From: Microbotryum violaceum
Lineage: Eukaryota
Direction: 5' to 3'
Assembly: GCA_001244265.2 (NCBI GenBank)
Contig: CDLV01000013.1
Span: 248,001-312,000, forward strand
DNA: 64,000 bases
Positions 48,020 through 60,853 of the stretch are shown one piece after another (positions within the stretch are counted from its first letter, which is position 1; each line of letters begins with the position of its first letter). The notes under the pieces are model-generated. The model made no database searches. It saw only the letters and a program-made list of their open reading frames with translations, and was not told where the DNA came from. The position numbers were made by a program, and so were the translations under genes.

Positions 48020-50378
48020 ATGTCATCGTCGCCTTGCGCAGCGGCTGCATATGCGCACGGGGCCCCTGCTACCGCGCCCGGAGGTACATCCGGTGCACGC
48101 ACAAGTACCACAGGATCCGAGCCACGTCGACCATCAACGGGCCCCAGTATCGACAGTCATGACACCCTGGTGCACGAGTCCGACAACTTAGTGAACTCGG
48201 CACGCGATCCGAAGGACGCCGACGCGCCGTCTTCAAGTGATCGACGCGTGTCGTCGGACTCCGCACGAACCGTTAAGCTGAAGCCGGACGAGGACCTCGA
48301 GAAGGGCAAAGTTGGCGCAATCGTCGGTGAGCCGGTGGAGAAACCGCCCTTGACCGATGACGGACGAGTAATCACCGTCGTAGACTGGGAAGGACCTGAT
48401 GACCCCGCTTTTCCGTGAGTACCGGAGCGCGCGTCTGGCGTCGCACACCTTTGAAGCCTCCTGTCCGCGGGGGGCTGTTCCGAGCGCGCGCTAGCAGTAC
48501 CTGACCCCGACGGAGACGGCTCACTTTGCAGTAAAAACTGGTCGAACAAACGGCGGATGGGAGCCACTATGATCGTGGCGAGCTTCACTTTCCTGTCGCC
48601 CATGTCGAGCACCATGATCGCGCCCGCAACGGGGCAGATCGCTGAGAAGTTTGGCGTCACGAGCACGGTTGAGATCGCGTCTTTCACTTCCATTTTCGTG
48701 GCCGCATACGCCCTGGGTCCGCTTTTCCTCGGACCTGCGTCCGAGCTCTACGGTCGGGTTCCCGTTTTGCAGTCGGCGAATCTAATCTACCTCCTCTTCA
48801 ATCTCGTCTGCGCCTTCGCCAAGACCCCAACCCAGCTGCTCGTTTTCCGCTTCCTCGCTGGACTCGGCGGGTCGGCCCCACTCGGTATCGGTGCCGGTGT
48901 TCTTGGTGACTTATGGCGACCTGAAGAACGAGGCCGTGCTGCGTCCATGTATTCCCTCGGCCCGCTCCTTGGTCCTGCTGTTGGGCCGATCGCGGGAGCT
49001 TGGATCGCCGAAAAGTCCCGGTGGGAGTGGGTCTTTTGGTCGACGACGATCCTCTGCGTGGTGATTCAGGGTTTCGGACTCGTTTACCTCCGCGAAACAT
49101 ATCCGCCGCAAATTTTAAGGGACAAGGCCTCAAAGATCAAGAAGGAGCGAGGATTGCCGACCGATTCCCTCGAGGTGCAAACCATTTTCGAGATCAAGTC
49201 CGGAGGAAGTGGGAAACCGGTCAACGTCTTTAGACACAGCATGGTCATGCCTTTTAAACTGTTCTGGTCTGAACGTGAGTTGTTGATGACGTGCCTAGTC
49301 GTGGTTGGGACGAAATTGACCTCGGTAACACATTTTCTCGACAGATATCTTGCAACTCCTGGCCGTCTTTGGGGCTTTCATTTACGGGCTTATTTACATC
49401 ACGACCGTCACGACGACCGACATCTTCACGCAAGTTTACGGTGAAAGCGTTGGAATTGCAGGTCTGAACTTTATCTCTCAAGGTGAGTTTAAGTAGATGA
49501 CGGTGCACGGCCCGTCACTTTGCTGACATTCGCTGTGAGATTCCTGTCCGTCCTTTTCGCTTAGGTCTTGGCTTCTTGATCTGGGCTCAGACCCAAGGAC
49601 GCGTGCTCGATGTTGTCTACAGAAAGTTCAAGGAGAGGTACGGCGGGGAGGGCAAGCCCGAGTACCGACTACCCAGTGAGTCTCTTATGCGGCTCGAGCC
49701 ATGGCTCCAAGCAGTATAGCAGTAGCTTACCGTCTAATTAATTCCTGTAGTGATGGCTTTCGCTGTAACCTTGCTACCCCTCGGGCTTTTGCTCTACGGG
49801 TGGGGTGCCGAACATCGATTGCATTGGATCGTGCCGAATATTGGATTGGGTTTCATCGTACGTTCCTCGTTGCCTTTTGCCTGGCCCGCGGAACCCGTAA
49901 ACTGACCTATCGTGCATACATAAGGCCGCCGGTATGATCAGTGCCTTCCAGTGCATCAACATGTACTTGATTGATGCCTTTACATTGCATGCTGCGTCCG
50001 CCGTGGCAGCCGCAACCTGCCTTCGTTCGCTGTGCGGATTCGGTAGGTCATCTGCGGCTTTGCTGTCCGTCAAGAGAGACCCTCCAAGCTGATCGATGCT
50101 CAACTTTCGTGCACGAAGGTTTCCCGCTCTTCGCCCCGTCCCTGTTCAAGGCCTTGGGGTACGGCTGGGGGTGCACATTGCTCGCCGTAGTCGGAATTGT
50201 CATCGGTTGGCCGGCCGTAAGTCGCTCTTAGCCATACTTTCGATCCTCAATCTCACAACAATGTCTCTGACCCTCGCACCTCCCTCGTTAGGTCCCCATT
50301 CTGTTCTTTTACGGTGAGCGCATTCGAGCGTCGAGTAAATACGCAGCCAAAAGCAAAGTCAATCCGAACTACTCATAG
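48020..50378 (+). CDS. MFS drug:H+ antiporter (DHA1 family), multi-exon
   Basis: VVDWEGPDDP...NWS; ALGPLFLGPASELYGR; FRFLAGLGGSAPL; GPLLGPAVGPIAG; RETY; GKPEYRLP; YLIDAF...AASAVAA; LGYGWG. Confidence 0.93.
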
Positions 50379-50894
50379 CACTTGAAGACCGGTGGAAATG
50401 TAGTGCAAATTGAAGTGAATAATTGTTGTATATTATATTTCACTCTGGTCATCCGTGAGGCCCATTCGGCATTTCAAGGTGAGACAACCCGGTGTCATGC
50501 AGTGTTCGATCTTGCCGAACCAAACGGACTTGAAGCAGTCAACTTGTTGTCTGCTCCAAAGTTGATGCAGATGTGAACTCGCATTTCGACAATTCACCTA
50601 TCACTCTCTGCAAAGACTCTCTGTCAAGGAAGATCTGAAGTTGCGACTGGTCATGATGGCCTTCAGGACGGGTACTTTGACTCGGATGCGAAATCCAGGC
50701 CGGGGATGAACTGGAACTAGTTGCGCCAGTTAAAGATGCGTAGCAGGTCATGAGCATCGCCGAAGTTTTTTTTCTTCTTCCGCGTAGCCGTGGGGCGTCG
50801 TCACGGAAGCTGTGGAGATGAACACGGGGTAGCTATAGTTGAAGTATCTTGAGAAGCCGGCGGAACGGCCGGCGTCGACTCTGTGCGCACGAGC

Positions 50895-51075
50895 CAGATC
50901 GGCAGGTCCGTTAACCCAGCCAGATGAGCTCCCCCGCGCGGGCGAGTAAAGGCAGCTTTTCTGTTTTTTTGGCCCGGTTGGAGGTTGGTACAGGTCGGGT
51001 GTACCAATGCCCTCCCCACCCCGTCCCACCCCGGCTCAGTGCCCCCTAAATGGTCATAAGTAATAAGGGGCTACT
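50895..51075 (+). repeat. Left terminal/subterminal inverted repeat of the KDZ element
   Basis: Blocks CCGCGCG-GGCGAGT-AGCTTTT-TTTGGCCC-AGGTTGGTAC-GGTG-CCA-TGCC-ACCC-TGGTCA-GCTACT occur in the same order in the reverse complement of 57881-58013. Confidence 0.8.
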
Positions 51076-51958
51076 AGTTCGTGTAAGACTCACCATCAGC
51101 ACGAATAACACTTTCCGAAGACTCGTAAGTTCGAATTATGTCATAAATGTCATACAGCTTGTCGTACTCAGTCCATTCAATTCGTGTAGTTCCATATACC
51201 ATCAACTGATATGTGTATGACAGATCCTGTGTAGACCTTTTCGTCCTGTTTTCTTATATTTGTTAATTTGGATACGACCGAGGGAGTACACACCGTGTTT
51301 ATTGGGCCCGAGAGAGGGATCGGTCCTGGTACGCACCTGGTCCCTGGAATCCTGGGATCGGTCCTCGGGCAGACAAACGCTTATTCTGAACGGTGTGCAC
51401 TGTGTATAGAAAATGGCTAGTGAAGCCGCTTCGGACGGTAGACGTGGGTCCAGCGGCAATTAGTCCTGCATCAATTTCTCGAGAGTAATTAATTGAAGAG
51501 GCAAAATTGAGGCAGGGCTGTGCGGCCGCACGCGGAGCTCAGATTGGCGAGCGCTCTGCGTTAACACTTTGACCTCTGCGCACTCACGTCAACGCGACAA
51601 CGCGCACCCTTGACCCACGCCACGCCCCGCGTCTCAATACATTGAAATCTCCCCGCGCCTGTTGAACAAACATCGATGCTATTGCCGTCTGGAGGTATGT
51701 GGACGCGTTTCCCCGCCTCACATCTCCCTCCTCATGGGCCTAATTGTGTTGCTCCACCATGACGCGACCGTCAGACATACGCGCGGGATCTAGGGAAGGT
51801 TCTCCAGCAGAGTCTATTTCCTTTGGCGCTCATCCGAGTGAATGCTCTTGTCTGGTGTGTCAACTGAGATCCCTTGTAGCAGGGCTGAGATCAGAGTGCC
51901 AGTCATCAACCTCATCCTTCTATCTACTCAATCCTGACGGACAGCTGAAGAATTCTCT

Positions 51959-52294
51959 GTTCTCTCACACCTCTTGCAGGTCGGAGGGACGATCAAAGCC
52001 GTCGAGCCTCCTCACAAGCCAGTACAATTCTGGATGAACCGTCTCGACGCCCGACTCGGAAGAGAAAGCGGCGCATGCCCATGCCCCAAACCCCTTCGTC
52101 AGCCGAGGATTGACTGGAATCGCCCAAATTGGGCTCGTCAGAGTCGGAGTCGGACGAAGCGGTTTGGGGCACGGGCATGCGCCGCTTTCTCTTCCGAGTC
52201 GGGCGTCGAGACGGTTCATCCAGAATTGTACTGGCTTGCGAGGATGCTCGACGGCTTTGGTCGTCCCTCCGACCTGCAAGAGGTGTGAGAGAAC
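51959..52294. repeat. Long inverted repeat: 142-bp arms (51959-52100, 52153-52294), 5 mismatches, 52-nt loop
   Basis: Base-by-base comparison; near-identical mirror ORFs on both strands in the ORF track (51965-52279 -, 51974-52288 +). Confidence 0.97.
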
Positions 52295-52399
52295 GTACTG
52301 GCTTGTGAGGAGTCACTTTCGGTCATGCCCACTCCACTCTCCTACGCTCTCGCTTAAGCTTACCGCTGCGTCCGCAATGTCTGTTCTTACATACCCTGG

Positions 52400-53300
52400 G
52401 TGTGTCAAATGTGCTCAGAATCGGATCAGTCGAAATCGCAATCCATCACCAAACTTGCCGCTCAACTCTGGAACTTCCTGAGAGACCAGGGGGACCTCGG
52501 ATCTGCCCAACTTGGCGAGGACGATGAAGAGCTTGTTCGCGCGGCTTTTGCAGCGGCAGAGGCGGGGAATAATGCGACTTTCACTTCGATAGTACCACCC
52601 ACCATCATCACACGGTCGCCATCCGACACCCCTTCCCCAACTCGGATGGAGCAATGCAAAAAGTACATTGCAGAATTGCGAGACCTGGCGCAACGCATGT
52701 CCAAGCTGTACGGAGTGGAAACTCTGACCTTTATTGTCCCTCGTTATCAAGACGACTGTCGCCAGCGACGAAGGCGACCGTGCATTCGATAGGTGGGCTC
52801 AGATTTGCAGCTCACTGCAACGACTTCAAGGATCCATCCGCTTGTTGTCTAATTTTGCTTCCAAGATGAGCTGGGATGAGACACTCAAGACCAATGAAGC
52901 GGCAGATCTGAAAGAGGGTGAGCCTATTACTTTGGGCATGGGTGACTATGACTTGCTGCAGTTCGACTGTTGAAACGCAAGCGCCCGTGACGACGTACTT
53001 CGCGTCGAGATTACAGTGAGCGTGTGAACTGGGCAGGAAGGAATTGCAACAAAGTAGTACGCTGGCTCTTGGCAACTTAGCAAAGTGTTCATTGACGTGC
53101 CACCAATGTACAATTCATTATATCATACAGAAAAAGACTGTTAGGGGTGATCAACTTGTGTTCCTTGCGTCTGAAAAGCCGTCAACCAAGTGCCGAGGCA
53201 AACACTCAACGGACCTGGTCGAGTGTGAGGCTCGGAGTGGCCGTGGCAACACCACAGAAGACCTTTGTACGACGTTGGGACTGTGAGCCGTATCAGGACT
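52400..53300 (+). pseudogene. Degraded second (accessory) gene of the KDZ element, convergent with the transposase
   Basis: Helical protein-like ORF 52400-52792 (KLAAQLWNFL...ELRDLAQRMSKLYGVETLTFIVPR); GT-AG intron-like breaks at ~52918 and ~53016; frameshifts. Confidence 0.5.
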
Positions 53301-53773
53301 CCGTTCAAGTATACATCAAAATGTAGTCGGCAGTGTAGGAATATAACAAGTACTTTTGCAATCCCTGTTGACTGTTCGGGAAGTGTCACCCAAGGCACGA
53401 CACGGACTGCGCATGTGACTGACTGGCAGGGAGCGCGGTAAGTTCTACCTGTAGGAGATCTCAGCGCAGCCAAGGTGCAATGGAGGCTTGTGTTCACTCC
53501 CTCAGTGTAGCACGCTCTTCATCTAAATCTTACCGGTCGTGTTGGGCTTCCGGCTGCTAGCTTTACCCCAGCGACACTAAATTTTTCAAGCGAGCCACCG
53601 CAAGATCGAGCGATTTAGCGATGCCGGGTCTTGGATGTCTGATCGCTCTTGTTGCACTTCCTGGCAAAGCGTCGTATGACGTGTAGAACTACTAGCGAAA
53701 TGAATGCATCATTGATCTCTTTACTATTTCAAGTAGCAACTGGGCAAAATACTGCAACTATATATGATCAATA

Positions 53774-56700
53774 TCAAATTCCCCAGAAAACATCGCCATC
53801 GTCTTCATCAAAGTTCTCGTTGATCTCGTCACTGAAGGCGCCGTAATCGGTAGGGTCGACGGAATGATGACTCAGATCATCGCTCGAATGATCACTGATG
53901 TCAAGAAAGGCGTCATGATCCGTGGTGATGTCCTCCGACTCTCCGACCATCCCATCATTGATGCAGTCTGCAGTGGCCATGTGTGATTCGGCAAGCCACC
54001 CGCTGTGGTTCGTTGAAAAATATCAACGTCGTCGGTGCACCACATTCGAAGCTCGACCCACTCCTCCATTTGCGGTTAGCCGGTTTGACGGGTGCATTCC
54101 CACAGCCTGTGATCGGCCGTCCTTTGAAAACCATCGGCGCGCACTAGTTCTAAGACGCTCTTCTTCTTGCTCGAGCAGCATTATCGCAGAGTCATCCTGC
54201 TCATCTAGTTGGTGTAATTGCTGGCGAACTTGCTGAAACCTCTTGCGACCGCTTATCAGCCACCGTCCAAATGCGACGCACTTCCCATCCAAGTCGCTTG
54301 ATTTCTTGCTGGCATCTTGCGCGAGACAATACTGCTGGAATGCCGACACGAACGTCATCATCGTAGGCCCACGGCTCAGTGGGATGACTATATAATCCGT
54401 TGTTCCAGAGCGGCGCCAAGATGTCGAGATTGAGCAGTTCGTTGAGATCCTCTGGGGCTGATGGCGGTACCCTTCGGGTTCTCAAGATCGAATGGGAATT
54501 CTGAAAATTGGCGAGGATGGCAGCATACTTTTTCACCTCGTCGTTATACATCGCCACTGCATTCATGAGTCTTGGACTCAAAGAATTAAAATTCATGACC
54601 AGGAGACCAGCCGCTTTCGTACCTATGAGCAGGCATTGCTACACATCAGCGTTCCTTCTGCCGGCGCAGAAGACTCGTACCATGGATTTCCTACCGAGGG
54701 CTTTACCGCCTAGGCGCGGGAGCCGCAGCCTCTCAGCTGCCTGTCGATATTGTACGACCAAGTCCCACAGCGAGCGAGATGCGACCATCAATGTGCAGGC
54801 CGATTCATAGCCTGGGCCAATCAAAGGTGTTGACATATTTAAGCGAGGACAAAGGGGATCACACCGGAGGATCACAATGGAAGAAGGGAGTGACGTACCA
54901 GGGTCCAGGACACTGATGTTTATTTCCGACGTGCGTAAGGAGTTCAGTCGTCATCAAGAACCTGCCCTTGTTTGACCAGCTGTTGAAGTTTAGTCGACTG
55001 TTCTATAAGCTTGTTCGTATCTTTGGTGTTCACGCAGGCTAGTTCTTCTCTGTAGCAATCGGAATACCGAAGTTAGGTTACCGGTTCGTCTCACTCCCAA
55101 ACGACGACGATAGGTCAGACCCACCGGCATGCTGCGATGTCTCTGTTAATTAGCTCAAGCTTAAACATGACGTTGCGCATCTCGGCTACCTCTTTGCGCT
55201 GCTCTTTCAAAGGGATCTTCTTGGATGCTGCACGTTGCGCGTGTCATTGTTCAAGGAGGGTAGCGACCGTCCATTCGGAGCGATTAACGACCTCAGCAAT
55301 GACTCTGTCGGCTTCGGCCTTGAGCTTGATTGCGTTTTTGAGTCGATAATTAAGTTTGGTCACTGGGCATGAAAAGCGCGGATCAAAGTCAACCTGGCAG
55401 GGCCACTTGTGCGCCTGGGCATGCATCGACGAGAGAGCATATTCTAGACGAGGTAAGTGGTCTGCCAGAAGATTGCGCTGCGCATGCCGGGGAGAGCTGA
55501 GCTGCTCAGCTACGGACTAAGCCAATGCTCAGGCTGAGTGTCACGAACAAACTCACACGGCGTAAGTGCGACGAGAAGTTGCAGGCGATATCATACGCGA
55601 CTCCGACGCGACTTCGATCTTGACTCGGACTTTGGTGGGAGTCCGATCCCGAGCTGGATCCGACGTTTGTAGCGTCACTGGTACGCGCAGGCCCCGTAGT
55701 ACAATCCGTTTCTCCGACTTCAACTTCTTCGAGAATCCATTTCAACAGCGACTCGGGATATACTAACCTGTGGTAGACCAAACTCGCTTATTAGTGTTCT
55801 TGCCTGGAGTCACAGATGGCCGGTCCACACATACTTTTCACCTGATTGATGAAGGTTGCAAAGTCGCAGGCAATGATCATGACGGCACACTGCAGCAACG
55901 AGGCCTGTGTCGACCACTACATTTGACGAAGCGGAGGTCACGCCACCATCTGCGGCCTTCCAGTTCGCTGTGCATTCGTCCTATATGATAGAATAGCCCG
56001 TTTAGCAATCACAGACAGTCGGGTCAACGCATTATTGGGTTCGGGTGACCCGACACCAGCAGCACCAAGGTACCTTCTCGCCCGCTTCAGTCGATCCGTC
56101 AATCAAAGCTTGCTCGTTTCGGATTTTGTCTGGTGGCAGGAATAACGCTGGACGTGACTTGAGAGGATCAGCATTTGCCCGCGCGAATCGTCGATGCTGA
56201 AAATTGCCGTCGACAGCAATGATGACATCGAGGTCATTCTCGCTCTTGCCGGCTTCATCGATCCGAGGCCCAAAACATGCCGAACAAACGTCGGCCAGAC
56301 GCTCGCGCGGGGAAAAGCCGAGGATTTCGGCGGTCAAAGTTGCCTGCAGCTGTTGCTAAATAGATATTCATTCATTGCGGCTTGGAGATGCTGACGCACG
56401 GTTGGAACCTGAGAAGCTTCCAATATTTTCTGTAAGCAACAGTGAATGTTTCCGGCCTGTCCCTGTCCTAGAGCCCACCTTGTTAAAAGGATCCTCCGAG
56501 GATAATTCAGAGGACCAAAAGAGAATGAGCGCTTCGGACATGCCATAGATACCAAAAGGATCTACCCCCAGTAGGCGTCGAGATATTCGATCGTGCGAAA
56601 GAGGAATGCGGTGATGCCTTCTCTTTTTCGGATTGAAGATGACGACGTCGGGAGAAGACCGTGAGCTGCCAGGGTTTGGATCTCGGAATAGCGTGGGCAG

Positions 56701-57888
56701 TATCGTAGTTCTCGCACGCCTGCTCATGGTTGGGGGATATAAAACCAGTCCAAGACGATAGCGTAGGGGTGATTGACAAAATACGTGCAACATAAGCACC
56801 TACCTGCAAAGAACAGGTCGACAACCCGGACCTTTCTGGTGACTCGGCGTTCATGACATGCGTCGCACCACTCCTCGTCGTCCGGGGAAGGGACAAACCC
56901 GCTCTGTCGAAGCACTTCTTTGGCCTTTTTCTTCATCAATAGGTACGCCTGGAGAAGGTCAGGTCGTTTTGACGCCATAGTCTTAGCTTCGGCCCTCGCA
57001 GTCCGGCGACGATTGCGCTGCTTCTTGGCGTTCCTCTCGATCCGCGATCGCTTAAGTGAAGAGGGCGCTTGGTCTTGAGAAGCACCGTCTGGGTGGAATG
57101 GCGAATGCTCCGGTCCAGATGAGTATCCACCGCCGAAATCGCGACCGAAGTCGTAGTCGGGCTCAAAGTCGGCTCAAACTGGCGCGCTGTTAGGCTCGAA
57201 GTCGCGCTCGGAGCCGCCGGTCTCGGTGTCTAGAGAATGAGAACGAGAATTCGAATTCCAGCTAGTCTACAAAGAGACGACCCTCTTCGGGCGCTGGAGG
57301 CCACGCCGTTGCGCCATCGGCAATGTCAGTCCAAGGCTCGGACGATGATTTGTGGAGGCCGGCAATGGATTTCTCCGAATGCTCCTTCCGACGACGCGTT
57401 GAGCTCTGGACCGATGGTGATGGGGGAGGGCTCGGCTGACGTTTCGGACGCCTCTTCGTCGGAGAGCGGAAAATACCGAAACTGAAGCCGAACGTCTTGT
57501 CGAACAGCTCGCTATCCGGGGACAACGATGGCTCCCTTTTCCGTACTCGCTTGGTCCATAATCTCCTCCTCTTCTTCTTCTTCGTCTTCGCCTCTTCCTC
57601 TGTTCCCACCGACGTCGTGGCCCCGTTCTCGATCGTGTCCTTGTTGCTGGTCACCTTCTTCCTCCTCCTCCTCACGGTCGTGCTCTTCTTGCGCTTGGCC
57701 TTGTCAGTGCGTTTTCCCTTCTCTGTTCCGACTGGCGATGCTGAGCTAGGTTGTAGAGGTGGTGGTGTGTGTGGTAGAATGACCATGCTTGAAGCGATGG
57801 GTGCAAGCCTGCAAGGCCTTGGGTGGAGGGAAGTGGAGGGAACTCGTGGTGCTGAGGCAGATGGACCATTAGCGGGGATAAGTAGCAA
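53774..57888 (-). pseudogene. KDZ transposase with CxC1-like cysteine cluster; frameshifts, a nonsense codon and an apparent internal deletion
   Basis: CDAC...VRVVD; YC...LAAHGLLP...TAF; CSACFGP; IIAVDGNFQHRR; CTANWKAA...DTGLVAAVCRHD...GEK; VAYDIACNF; HAQAHKWPCQ; PWAYDDDVRVGI...RCQQEIKRL; acidic tail; basic N-terminal ORF 57262-57888. Confidence 0.9.
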
Positions 57889-58054
57889 GTGCCCGAATTA
57901 GTGACCACTTTTGCCTCCGGGGGCTGGGGGTTGGCAAGGCAATGGCGCACCTAGCCCGTACCAACCTTTTCCTGGGCCAAATCTTCCAAAAGCTCCGGAA
58001 CTCGCCGCGCGCGGTGTAGTATATTTGTTAGGCTTATCTTGACCCGCATAGGTG
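57881..58054 (-). repeat. Right terminal/subterminal inverted repeat of the KDZ element
   Basis: Reverse complement of 57958-57981 is TTTGGCCCAGGAAAAGGTTGGTAC vs left TTTGGCCCGGTTGGAGGTTGGTAC (50968-50991), same spacing. Confidence 0.8.
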
Positions 58055-58700
58055 GCACGAGCCAAGCTTTGATCAAGATGACCTCAATTTGCCGCCTGAC
58101 GCCTTCTCAATTCTGCACTTCTCTGCCGCTCCCTGCCAGTCCTCAGACCCGTACTGAGTACTGAGTACTGACCATCGTCGGATCATACGGCTGGTCGGGT
58201 CTCCCTGGCCACGCGAAGGTCGGACTATCTCTGGTTGCGAGGTCCGCTGCAGTGGTTCTCGCGATCGAGAGTCGTGCCGTCCCTATACCTCGGCGAGGAA
58301 CACTCTGGATGGGCTCGAGAGTCCCAAAGTGATATATGTATGCAAAACGCAAAAACTCGACGGCAGGTTGAATACAGTACCACACTTAGTACTAGAGTTA
58401 CTCAGCGCCCCGACTAGTAGCCAGTATAAATCTCCAGTAGTTTGCGGGTGTTCGCGGCAATGGGCCCAAGCTGGCCCAAGAACTCCGAAGAATACTCTCT
58501 GGAGCTCTCTGGCGAGCTCTGGCGCTCTCTGCAACGCTCTGCAACGCGTTCGCGTGCGCTGCTTCTGAACCATCTCGGTTTTCGCCTCTGTCTCCTGTTC
58601 AACAGGTCGTGTACGCGCCACCGTTGACCGCCGATATCTGCTCTTCCGATCTCGACTCGAGCTCTCGCACCGCCCACTCGCCCTGCTCGCCGCTCTTAGC

Positions 58701-60853
58701 ATGTCGACCCGAGCAGCTGCTTCGCTCAACCGGGCGCTCACACGAGCGACCCACGGGTCCATTACTAGCTCATGCAAGACGCGGTCCTGCCACCACAATA
58801 TCGACACCAGCATCCGCCTCCGCAGCTTCGTCTCGTATGCGATTCCACTTCGCAAACATCATCGAGCGCACCCAGCTGCGACGGTCAAAGTGACTACTAC
58901 AAGCACCTCCAAGCCTACGAATTCCATCGAAGGATCTCAATATGCACCTGCCGAACTGCTGACCGTCCTGCAGGAGACGATCAGAGTGAGTCAGTCAGTG
59001 TACGCACCCGCAACGTAGCCGTCGCCATCGGGGCGGATGCTCATCACCATCATCCCTCCACCCACCCCCACTTGCGCTCCGACTCGCGCGCTCGCACAGA
59101 CCCATGGCCCGCTGCCCGTGTCGCGCTACATGACCCTCTGTCTCTCCCACCCGACCCTAGGATACTACACCACCCGCAACGTATTTGGATCCAGTGGCGA
59201 CTTTATTACCAGCCCCGAAATATCCCAGGTCTTTGGGGAGGTGTGTACTTGAGAAGCTTTGCGTGCGTACCTGAGCGAGGCTGAAAAGCCTTCGACCGAA
59301 TCACGGCGGTTCGCTTTTGCATGACCGCTATCAGCTGTTGGCGATCTGGTTTGTCACGCAATGGGCCGCACAGGGCGCTCCCTCCAAAGTCAGGATCGTA
59401 GAACTCGGACCGGGCAAAGGAACACTCCTCGCAGACGTTTTGAGGGTCAGTCTCGGTAGTGCCTTGTCCATCCACTCGCCTTAGCTTCGTCCGCTTATGG
59501 TTTCCAACACGCCCGACCTCCTTCAGACCTTCAAGGCGCTCCCACAAGCATCTGCACGTCCTGTGACCTCGATACATCTCGTCGAGTCATCTGCGGCTTT
59601 GCGTAAAGTCCAGAAGGAAAAACTCGCCAACTCCGGGTTCGCTGACGTCGAAACCCGCTGGTGGGACAATGCCGTTGAGGTACCACCGAGTGAGTCACCC
59701 ATCCACGACGGGCTCCTTTTACAGCACTGAACACGTCTCGAAATAATTGGTCGGCACAGGTGAGGACGAGTTCACGATCGTCATCGCGCATGAGTTCTTC
59801 GATGCTCTGCCGATACATATCTTCGAGGTATGTTAGAACTGATCTTCGAGGGTGGCGTGCTCCTCAATTACTGAGCCTCCCTTTATGTTGTCTACCAGAA
59901 TACGCCAAAAGGGTGGCGAGAGGTCCTGGTCGATGTGGCCGATCCAGAAAAGGCAGTGTACGTCAGGAGCTTTCCAGCACTCACGACTCGAGACTGACTT
60001 TCATCATGTCCGCTGCAGTGTTCCAAACGTTACAGCCGAGCCCCTTCGGCTGGGGCTCGCTCCCGGTCCTACGCCTGCCTCGACTCTTTACACCCGCCTG
60101 TCTACGGTGATTGCCAACCCAGCCTCGAACGCCTCGACTTCTCCTGCCCCCTCATTTGACACGACACTCCCTCCGACGGGGGCGACCTCACCACCAACCG
60201 CGCAGGCGCCCCAAAATGCTGACGAGCCCATCTCCCCCACACTGGCTCGTTTCGCTCGTCTGCCTATCGGGTCTCGTATCGAGATCTCACCCGCAAGCTG
60301 GGAAGTCGCCCAGAGCGTGGGAAAGCTCTTCTCCCCTTCTTCGAGTCCCAAGGGTGCTGCGGGCTTGGTCATAGACTACGGGGACGCCAAGGCCTTCGGA
60401 AGGTCATGGCGAGGTTTCAGAAAGCATGCCGTGGTGGACCCGCTGACTGAACCGGGGCATACGGACTTGACGGCAAATGTCGATTTCGCCTATTTGAACG
60501 AGGCGTTAGCGGAAAATGGTGAGAGCTCATCATTTTGATTCGGATCTGGACTAGACGAGATAATCATGCTGACTCGGAACCTGTCCCCAGCCTCGACACA
60601 TGGCCCTCTGTCCCAAAGGACCTTTTTACGCTCATTAGGCCTAGACGCCCGCATCTCGTCTCTCCTCCGCCATGCTCCCATGGAACGTCAAAAAGAAATC
60701 GCGAGTGCTGCCCAGCGTCTCATTGACAAAGCCGGCATGGGCACGCAGTACAAGGTCATGGCGATCACGCCGAAGGGGAATCAAGAAGGATCGGCGTTCC
60801 CCTTCGTTGAAGGGGTCGAGGAGGCGCTGGATCAGGCCGAGAGGGCTTCATAG
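58701..60853 (+). CDS. NDUFAF7: Mitochondrial protein-arginine methyltransferase NDUFAF7/MidA (complex I assembly), multi-exon
   Basis: Presequence-like N-terminus; [87 protein letters not shown]. Confidence 0.95.

Follow-up and report, generated by a model that had tools for sequence, protein, structure and literature searches.

Ds elements derived from Ac, like the deletion derivatives of the P element, are non-autonomous transposons that arise through abortive gap repair, in which templates are switched and filler DNA is added. The classic footprint of template switching, whether during replication or during repair of the gap that excision leaves behind, combines a strand switch at a microhomology with a short templated insertion and a deletion. 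For inverted duplications of transposon genes, a reference case is the Mu killer (Muk) locus of maize, in which part of a MuDR element occurs as a natural inverted duplication (Slotkin et al. 2003, cited in PMC10827316). In basidiomycetes, the KDZ1 element of Cryptococcus neoformans has an antisense non-coding RNA over its transposase and RNAi-dependent small RNAs, and some Cryptococcus KDZ elements appear to be regulated by RNAi, according to a preprint (bioRxiv 10.1101/2024.08.15.608186). A 2022 review of fungal hairpin RNAs considered that natural long-hairpin RNAi still needs exploring (PMC9757828). No fungal counterpart of Mu killer was found in the literature searched, as judged from the matches listed, and no internally rearranged KDZ derivatives were described there either.

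Here we analyse a long hairpin within a 64-kb stretch of Microbotryum violaceum DNA (the window), which lies in a dead copy of a KDZ DNA transposon. Our main reading, to which we assign a probability of roughly 0.65, is that the hairpin genuinely exists, is fairly old and represents a template-switch scar that has since decayed neutrally, and which may incidentally give rise to a hairpin RNA. Non-autonomous derivatives of DNA transposons with internal rearrangements form a well-known class, and the locus belongs to it as a case from a KDZ family. It resembles Ds and the P-element derivatives in its internal deletion, its 5-bp microhomology, its 18-nt templated insertion and its retained ends and target duplication, whereas it differs from them in the family concerned and in an outcome that includes an inverted duplication forming a long hairpin. 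As in Mu killer, the duplicated segment comes from the 5′ part of a gene that belongs to an autonomous cut-and-paste transposon, and it is carried by a defective copy in a genome with intact, multi-copy targets. Unlike the Muk hairpin, however, which is of kilobase scale, the window arms measure 142 bp, the duplicated gene is an accessory one (ORF2) instead of the transposase, and the host is a basidiomycete without the plant pathway of RNA-directed DNA methylation. For the window locus, a transcript, siRNAs and heritable silencing are hypothetical, and its likeness to a Mu killer-type locus is structural only. With KDZ1, it shares the basidiomycete host, the KDZ class, extra ORFs without known domains and a proposed dsRNA trigger of RNAi, but the KDZ1 dsRNA would come from sense/antisense overlap in intact elements, whereas that of the window would be an intramolecular hairpin from one broken copy.

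The window was compared over positions 49000-59500 with the contigs of four coded public runs, three of DNA (X1, X3 and X8) and one of RNA (X17, from an organism that we call C), as well as with annotated proteins. The X1 flank contigs showed 0 differences from the window up to 50922 and again from 58025, so X1 is the same strain. Between these points, from 50923 to 58024, contig depth rose about 10-13-fold in the three DNA runs (338.9 inside the element vs 26.2 in the flank for X8, 62.3 vs 6.1 for X3, and 2665.9 vs 216.7 for X1). Contig depth reflects copy number no more than roughly; by this measure, the KDZ family would have roughly 10 copies per genome. Matches to the family start at 50895 and end near 58056. 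A 10-bp direct repeat (50887-50896, identical to 58055-58064) flanks the element, of which we annotate 8 bp as the target-site duplication (50887-50894 on the left, where the repeat extends to 10 bp through 50896, and 58055-58062 on the right). The termini read CA...TG, and the terminal inverted repeats, of about 110 nt, are imperfect (73%). Because the flanks are single-copy, the interior depth is raised, and both direct and terminal inverted repeats are present, the element is a complete insertion of about 7.16 kb (50895-58054) from a multi-copy family. An 8-bp target duplication has been reported for Zisupton and CA..TG termini for Kyakuja (PMC12730594), and the window element would thus resemble the former in its target duplication and the latter in its ends.

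The surroundings of the insertion gave some further observations. An ORF for an MFS_1 transporter of the major facilitator superfamily (E = 9.6e-36) occupies 48455-49441 of the plus strand, about 1.5 kb from the left end of the element. In the same flank, the X8 contig ends at 50551, some 340 bp short of the element, whereas those of X1 and X3 reach it (region 50404-50922), which may reflect a structural difference in the X8 organism. On the right side, the RNA contigs of X17 skip two plus-strand stretches, 58983-59100 and 59238-59333, the second one with GT..AG ends; an expressed host gene adjoins the element.

The transposase gene of this copy is a pseudogene with CxC1 and KDZ domains (tblastn and Pfam) on the minus strand, convergent with ORF2. 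Residues 2-1195 of P0013, a 1195-aa protein of Microbotryum silenes-dioicae, align by tblastn in 8 pieces from 57817 down to 53777. The KDZ domain (Pfam PF18758) of P0013 scores 163.9 bits, while the window ORFs reach just 22.5 and 17.1 bits, under the cut-off of 26.6, as introns and frameshifts interrupt the gene. For CxC1, protein P0011 scores 28.8 bits (cut-off 26.9) and P0013 stays below it with 22.9; the CxC part of the transposase corresponds to 57233-56358 in the window. Compared with its sister copies, the window gene carries 1-bp indels at 54269, 56564 and 57708, and these broken frames indicate that the copy is dead. The sequence-only reading had described a dead, non-autonomous KDZ element, and the KDZ domain of the aligned P0013, the indels and the frame breaks bear it out. 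The X17 contigs further delimit seven minus-strand introns in the family transposase gene, of 67-93 nt and with CT..AC ends on the plus strand (54620-54691, 54811-54898, 55478-55557, 55766-55832, 55980-56072, 56408-56477 and 56719-56802), from which it follows that the KDZ family is transcribed and spliced in organism C.

The hairpin lies upstream of the ORF2 remnant of this element. A repeat search recovered an inverted pair, 51959-52100 and 52153-52294, with arms of 142 nt that are 96% complementary and separated by 52 nt. When the left arm is set against the reverse-complemented right arm, 5 of the 142 positions differ (3.5%), namely 51993/52260, 52008/52245, 52014/52239, 52081/52172 and 52093/52160, which confirms the arms, mismatches and loop initially noticed. 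The palindrome GCCCA-AAT-TGGGC, also noticed then, sits within the spacer at 52122-52134. Among inverted repeats of at least 35 nt within 3 kb, this pair is the sole one in the entire 64 kb of the window, which contains the arm nowhere else. The RNA of the region is predicted to fold as a single long stem of -320.5 kcal/mol, compared with a mean of -135.8 for shuffled sequences (z = -30.3), none of which folded as well (0/100). The arm had been said to start with a splice-acceptor-like TTGCAG; the motif is indeed in the arm, but it sits 15 nt inside (51974-51979) and not at its first base. Immediately after the right arm, the 18 nt at 52295-52312 are a 100% reverse complement of 52008-52025 in the left arm, a detail absent from the first account of the locus. 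A scan of Rfam over 51400-52900 (E up to 0.1) and a metagenome scan with a 29-nt word of the arm gave 0 matches each. A miRNA or milRNA precursor was considered and rejected, given the lack of Rfam matches and a stem of 142 bp instead of a short, imperfect one.

The origin of the arm became clear from its relatives. When the right arm and spacer, read on the minus strand, served as the query, the matches were five M. silenes-dioicae proteins with lengths of 201-493 aa, in three cases adjacent to a KDZ gene by gene number (C010g05986/87, C004g03028/29 and C001g00913/12). All five gene models start with MPVPQTPSS, continue without interruption through the spacer in sense orientation into an acidic Ser/Asp tract, and then add about 450 further residues. 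These sister genes identify the arm as the 5′ terminus of the element's second gene, ORF2, a plus-strand accessory gene of about 480 aa that converges with the transposase. The proposal that the 5′ end of this second gene has been duplicated in inverted orientation to form the arms finds support in both the sister models and tblastn. The annotated start codon falls inside the left arm, at 52076-52078. Frame 1 of the arm reads ...RRPTRKRKRRMPMPQ... and comprises the basic stretch RRPTRKRKRR followed by MPMPQ. The basic stretch had been taken as an encoded, NLS-like motif, and frame 1 does read it; yet it may be 5′ UTR and not an NLS-coding exon, because the start codon lies downstream of it in 5/5 sister models. 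The function of ORF2 has few leads. Pfam gave just a weak HTH_50 match (E = 0.01, 15.9 bits vs a cut-off of 27), its neighbours in the Atlas are unnamed clusters of Basidiomycota, and an AlphaFold model built on 7 sequences was unusable (mean pLDDT 35.7). With the 144-aa remnant of ORF2 as the query, an exhaustive HMMER search (E up to 0.001) returned three proteins only, two from Microbotryum and P0008 as the third.

A comparison of the window with its sister copies reveals what has changed in this one. Sister contigs from X8 are colinear with 51690-52100, with 6 differences in 411 nt. From 52100, the family contigs of X3 (depth 67.5) and X8 (338.9) resume at 52152, on the other strand, and enter a hexanucleotide repeat, whereas other family contigs, in X1, X3 and X8, match the window from 52316 on and carry a different sequence before this point. 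In agreement with this arrangement, residues 1-28 of sister ORF2 align by tblastn to the minus strand at 52178-52095, that is, to right arm and spacer, with 26/28 identities, and residues 29-139 left no trace in the window. The left arm thus stands as the ORF2 5′ end in its native context, colinear with the element sequence that precedes it, just as in the sisters, and the right arm is the same end inverted and contiguous with the spacer as in the sister genes. The spacer (52101-52152) holds ORF2 codons 10-27, together with their native palindrome, in inverted orientation only. Given the family contigs and the five gene models, the sister copies are single-armed as far as their sequences reveal, which answers the question, raised at the outset, of whether sister elements carry one copy of the arm. 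A foldback transposon or MITE was likewise considered and rejected, as no second copy occurs in the window, the family contigs are single-armed, and the arms consist of gene sequence and not of element ends.

In the window copy, the upstream sequence and the arm are followed by the inverted arm with the next 52 nt, the inverted 18-nt snippet, three unassigned bases (52313-52315) and the remainder of an ORF2 intron (52316-52417). At the inner junction there is a 5-bp microhomology, TCGTC (52096-52100), since the spacer match of the sisters on the opposite strand begins at 52096. After the intron, the exon resumes at 52418 as an ORF2 remnant that extends to 52928 and corresponds to sister residues 140-308 (tblastn 52418-52916, with two frame changes); relative to the sisters it has lost 1 bp at 52756 and 7 bp at 52840. 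A second internal deletion has its junction at 52925/52928, where the contigs of the sisters depart from the window to either side; by tblastn, the window lacks ORF2 residues 309-481. As to the hexanucleotide repeat, of CAGTGA type and coding for the Ser/Asp tract, it comes right after the spacer in the sisters, is missing between 52100 and 52316 in the window, and varies in length among gene models (P0001 vs P0023).

This arrangement would follow from microhomology-mediated template switching, as in the abortive gap repair of cut-and-paste transposons, of which the window copy has the internal deletion, the microhomology and the templated filler. The starting point would be an intact ORF2 5′ region, with one arm, the spacer in the orientation opposite to that of the window, the CAGTGA-type repeat and the rest of exon 1. 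DNA synthesis would have passed through the arm, jumped at the 5-bp microhomology to the opposite strand 52 nt ahead, and copied back across spacer and arm. A second, short jump would have left the 18-nt templated insertion before the original template was rejoined within the first intron. The outcome would be at once an inverted duplication, the loss of residues 29-139 and the inactivation of ORF2. Neutral decay would have added the arm mismatches, the frameshifts in both genes and the second internal deletion. Were the ORF2 promoter still to fire, its transcript would begin with a 142-bp dsRNA stem that Dicer could cut, an incidental activity of the scar.

An independent view of the structure comes from M. 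silenes-dioicae. A plus-strand ORF of 84 codons (52034-52288) reads through left arm, spacer and right arm of the window, and its counterpart is annotated there as a gene, BQ5605_C008g05273 (P0022), identical at 80 of the 84 positions over the full length. The neighbouring g05272 (P0006) matches the truncated ORF2 remnant at 166 of 168 positions, begins at the counterpart of the ATG at 52406 and carries the same frameshifted reading across the 52925 junction, whereas g05270 is a KDZ fragment; the three models are colinear with the window. As both lineages share this derivative, the structure must predate the separation of these lineages, or that of the two copies. The arms carry derived states on both sides, with M where the sisters read V at 52081 in the left one, and a base at 52160 in the right one that differs from that of the sisters, P0022 and P0023. 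The right-arm states at 52239, 52245 and 52260, at least three, are common to the window and P0022. The change at 52160 occurred after the split, is private to the window and is the sole case that is demonstrably uncompensated. Compensatory changes are possible in the M. silenes-dioicae arms, where the partner positions are synonymous third codon positions or fall outside the ORF.

The sequence-only reading held that the arms are either recent or being maintained, a view that these data do not support. The window copy differs from the family contigs by 1.5-4.1% (6/411, 16/610, 63/1522, 38/1075 and 52/1452), and because the divergence between the arms equals this figure, the arms give, at the sequence level, no sign of recency or maintenance. 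The changes derived in both of them, the states older than the split and the uncompensated one point the same way. The likeness of the arms had also been compared with that of the element ends, but this comparison is uninformative, as terminal repeats of 73% identity are imperfect by design. Error-prone synthesis during the rearrangement could be the source of some arm mismatches, which therefore date the structure only loosely. From all this we infer that the hairpin has decayed neutrally, although its retention in two lineages, together with a second hairpin in Microbotryum saponariae, could be a hint of selection rather than chance.

This second structure was found with the hairpin-spanning ORF as a query. 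Chr4-2g07189 of M. saponariae (P0023), a 131-aa protein present on 2 contigs, contains ORF2 residues 1-68 in sense, five odd residues, and then 58 antisense residues of spacer and arm, of which 53 are identical to the window; the protein maps to 52178-52095 on the minus strand and 52112-52285 on the plus strand. Its sequence suggests a second inverted duplication of the same segment, with another inner junction and a longer spacer, within a gene model that may hide an intron. Such a hairpin may mark a hot spot of strand switching; it may also stem from a hairpin subfamily that has spread, or have been retained by selection.

How the locus should be understood depends on what each possible explanation makes of these data. 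It was a reasonable worry that the hairpin might be a fold-back artefact of assembly or sequencing, and the window-specific junctions are in fact not among the matches listed for the contigs of X1, the same strain, which is evidence neither for nor against it. The independently assembled and annotated genome of M. silenes-dioicae, however, encodes the same order of arm, spacer and arm with its own four amino-acid differences, and so removes the concern. Chimeric reads, moreover, would neither produce five arm differences with derived states on both sides nor resume the forward orientation by way of a microhomology and a templated insertion, and we find an artefact hardly credible. No more credible is that the 84-codon ORF is a genuine new protein-coding gene, despite being open in two lineages and annotated in one of them. 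One half of it is the antisense of the DNA of the other half, no protein family was found for it, it accumulated 4 replacements in 84 codons between the two lineages compared with 2 in 168 for the ORF2 remnant next door, and a search for relatives in its length class gave 2 proteins only, both of them readings of a palindrome. The ORF is probably a by-product of the palindrome, and BQ5605_C008g05273 a spurious gene model. A different question is whether the sequence itself invites such events, with the palindrome and the hexanucleotide repeat favouring repeated fold-backs, and with derivatives that keep both ends being mobilised in trans so that they may spread. Two differently joined inverted duplications of one segment in two species (the window with P0022, and P0023), a 13-nt palindrome adjoining a microsatellite, and a window copy with both ends and its target duplication would fit a mutational hot spot. 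Still, two instances are all that is known, the one in M. saponariae comes from a gene model alone with a possible intron, and the window holds no second hairpin copy, all of which makes the idea quite improbable at present.

The explanation that prompted the analysis was that of a family-silencing locus in the manner of Mu killer. The ORF2 promoter of the dead copy would drive a transcript with a 142-bp stem, and the siRNAs diced from it would silence the ORF2 of the sister copies in trans, perhaps even the whole element by spreading. Several facts favour it: the duplicated part of the transposon gene includes its 5′ end with the annotated start codon, the long stem is paired at 96%, and the arm region is about 98.5% identical to the family contigs (6/411), so that siRNAs would match their targets. 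These targets do exist, as postulated, with the family multi-copy by contig depth (about 10 copies). The host machinery that had been presumed is likewise found in the genus, with one Dicer, two Argonautes and one RdRP, all of them expressed, in Microbotryum lychnidis-dioicae (PMC4469406). The partial control of Cryptococcus KDZ elements by RNAi, in the preprint mentioned above, and the presence of the hairpin in two lineages, with another one in M. saponariae, go in the same direction. Against it, the arms are conserved no better than the rest of the copy, with one post-split change left uncompensated, and a purely mutational origin accounts for every feature. In organism C, which may or may not carry the hairpin, the transposase RNA is well covered and spliced at its seven introns, so the KDZ family is not shut off there. 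RNA contigs of this organism also cover the ORF2 5′ region of the family, and they are not assignable to a hairpin copy. No Microbotryum small-RNA data set appeared in the titles and abstract starts of the literature matches listed. Altogether, we regard a silencing role of the window copy as unlikely. Less likely still is its strongest form, a natural fungal locus of Mu killer type retained in at least two Microbotryum lineages, where RNAi acts on the ORF2 of some ten sisters, and for which the M. saponariae hairpin would suggest recurrence as well as retention. Hairpin RNA and siRNAs from the window copy could nonetheless well be made, because the sequence upstream of ORF2 is 98.5% identical to that of the family, family RNA occurs in organism C, and the RNAi core is expressed in the genus.

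As a template-switch scar, the locus offers a clean and datable example of a cut-and-paste transposon broken by strand-switching repair, in a transposon class, KDZ, whose derivatives have barely been described. Two 'genes' annotated in published Microbotryum genomes are, moreover, recognised here as read-throughs of palindromes. The private alleles of the right arm, at 52160, 52239, 52245 and 52260, which the sister copies lack, provide a direct means of tracing small RNAs to the window locus alone. Should the hairpin prove to be transcribed and diced, fungi would have their first natural hairpin silencer derived from a transposon, as far as the literature searched goes.
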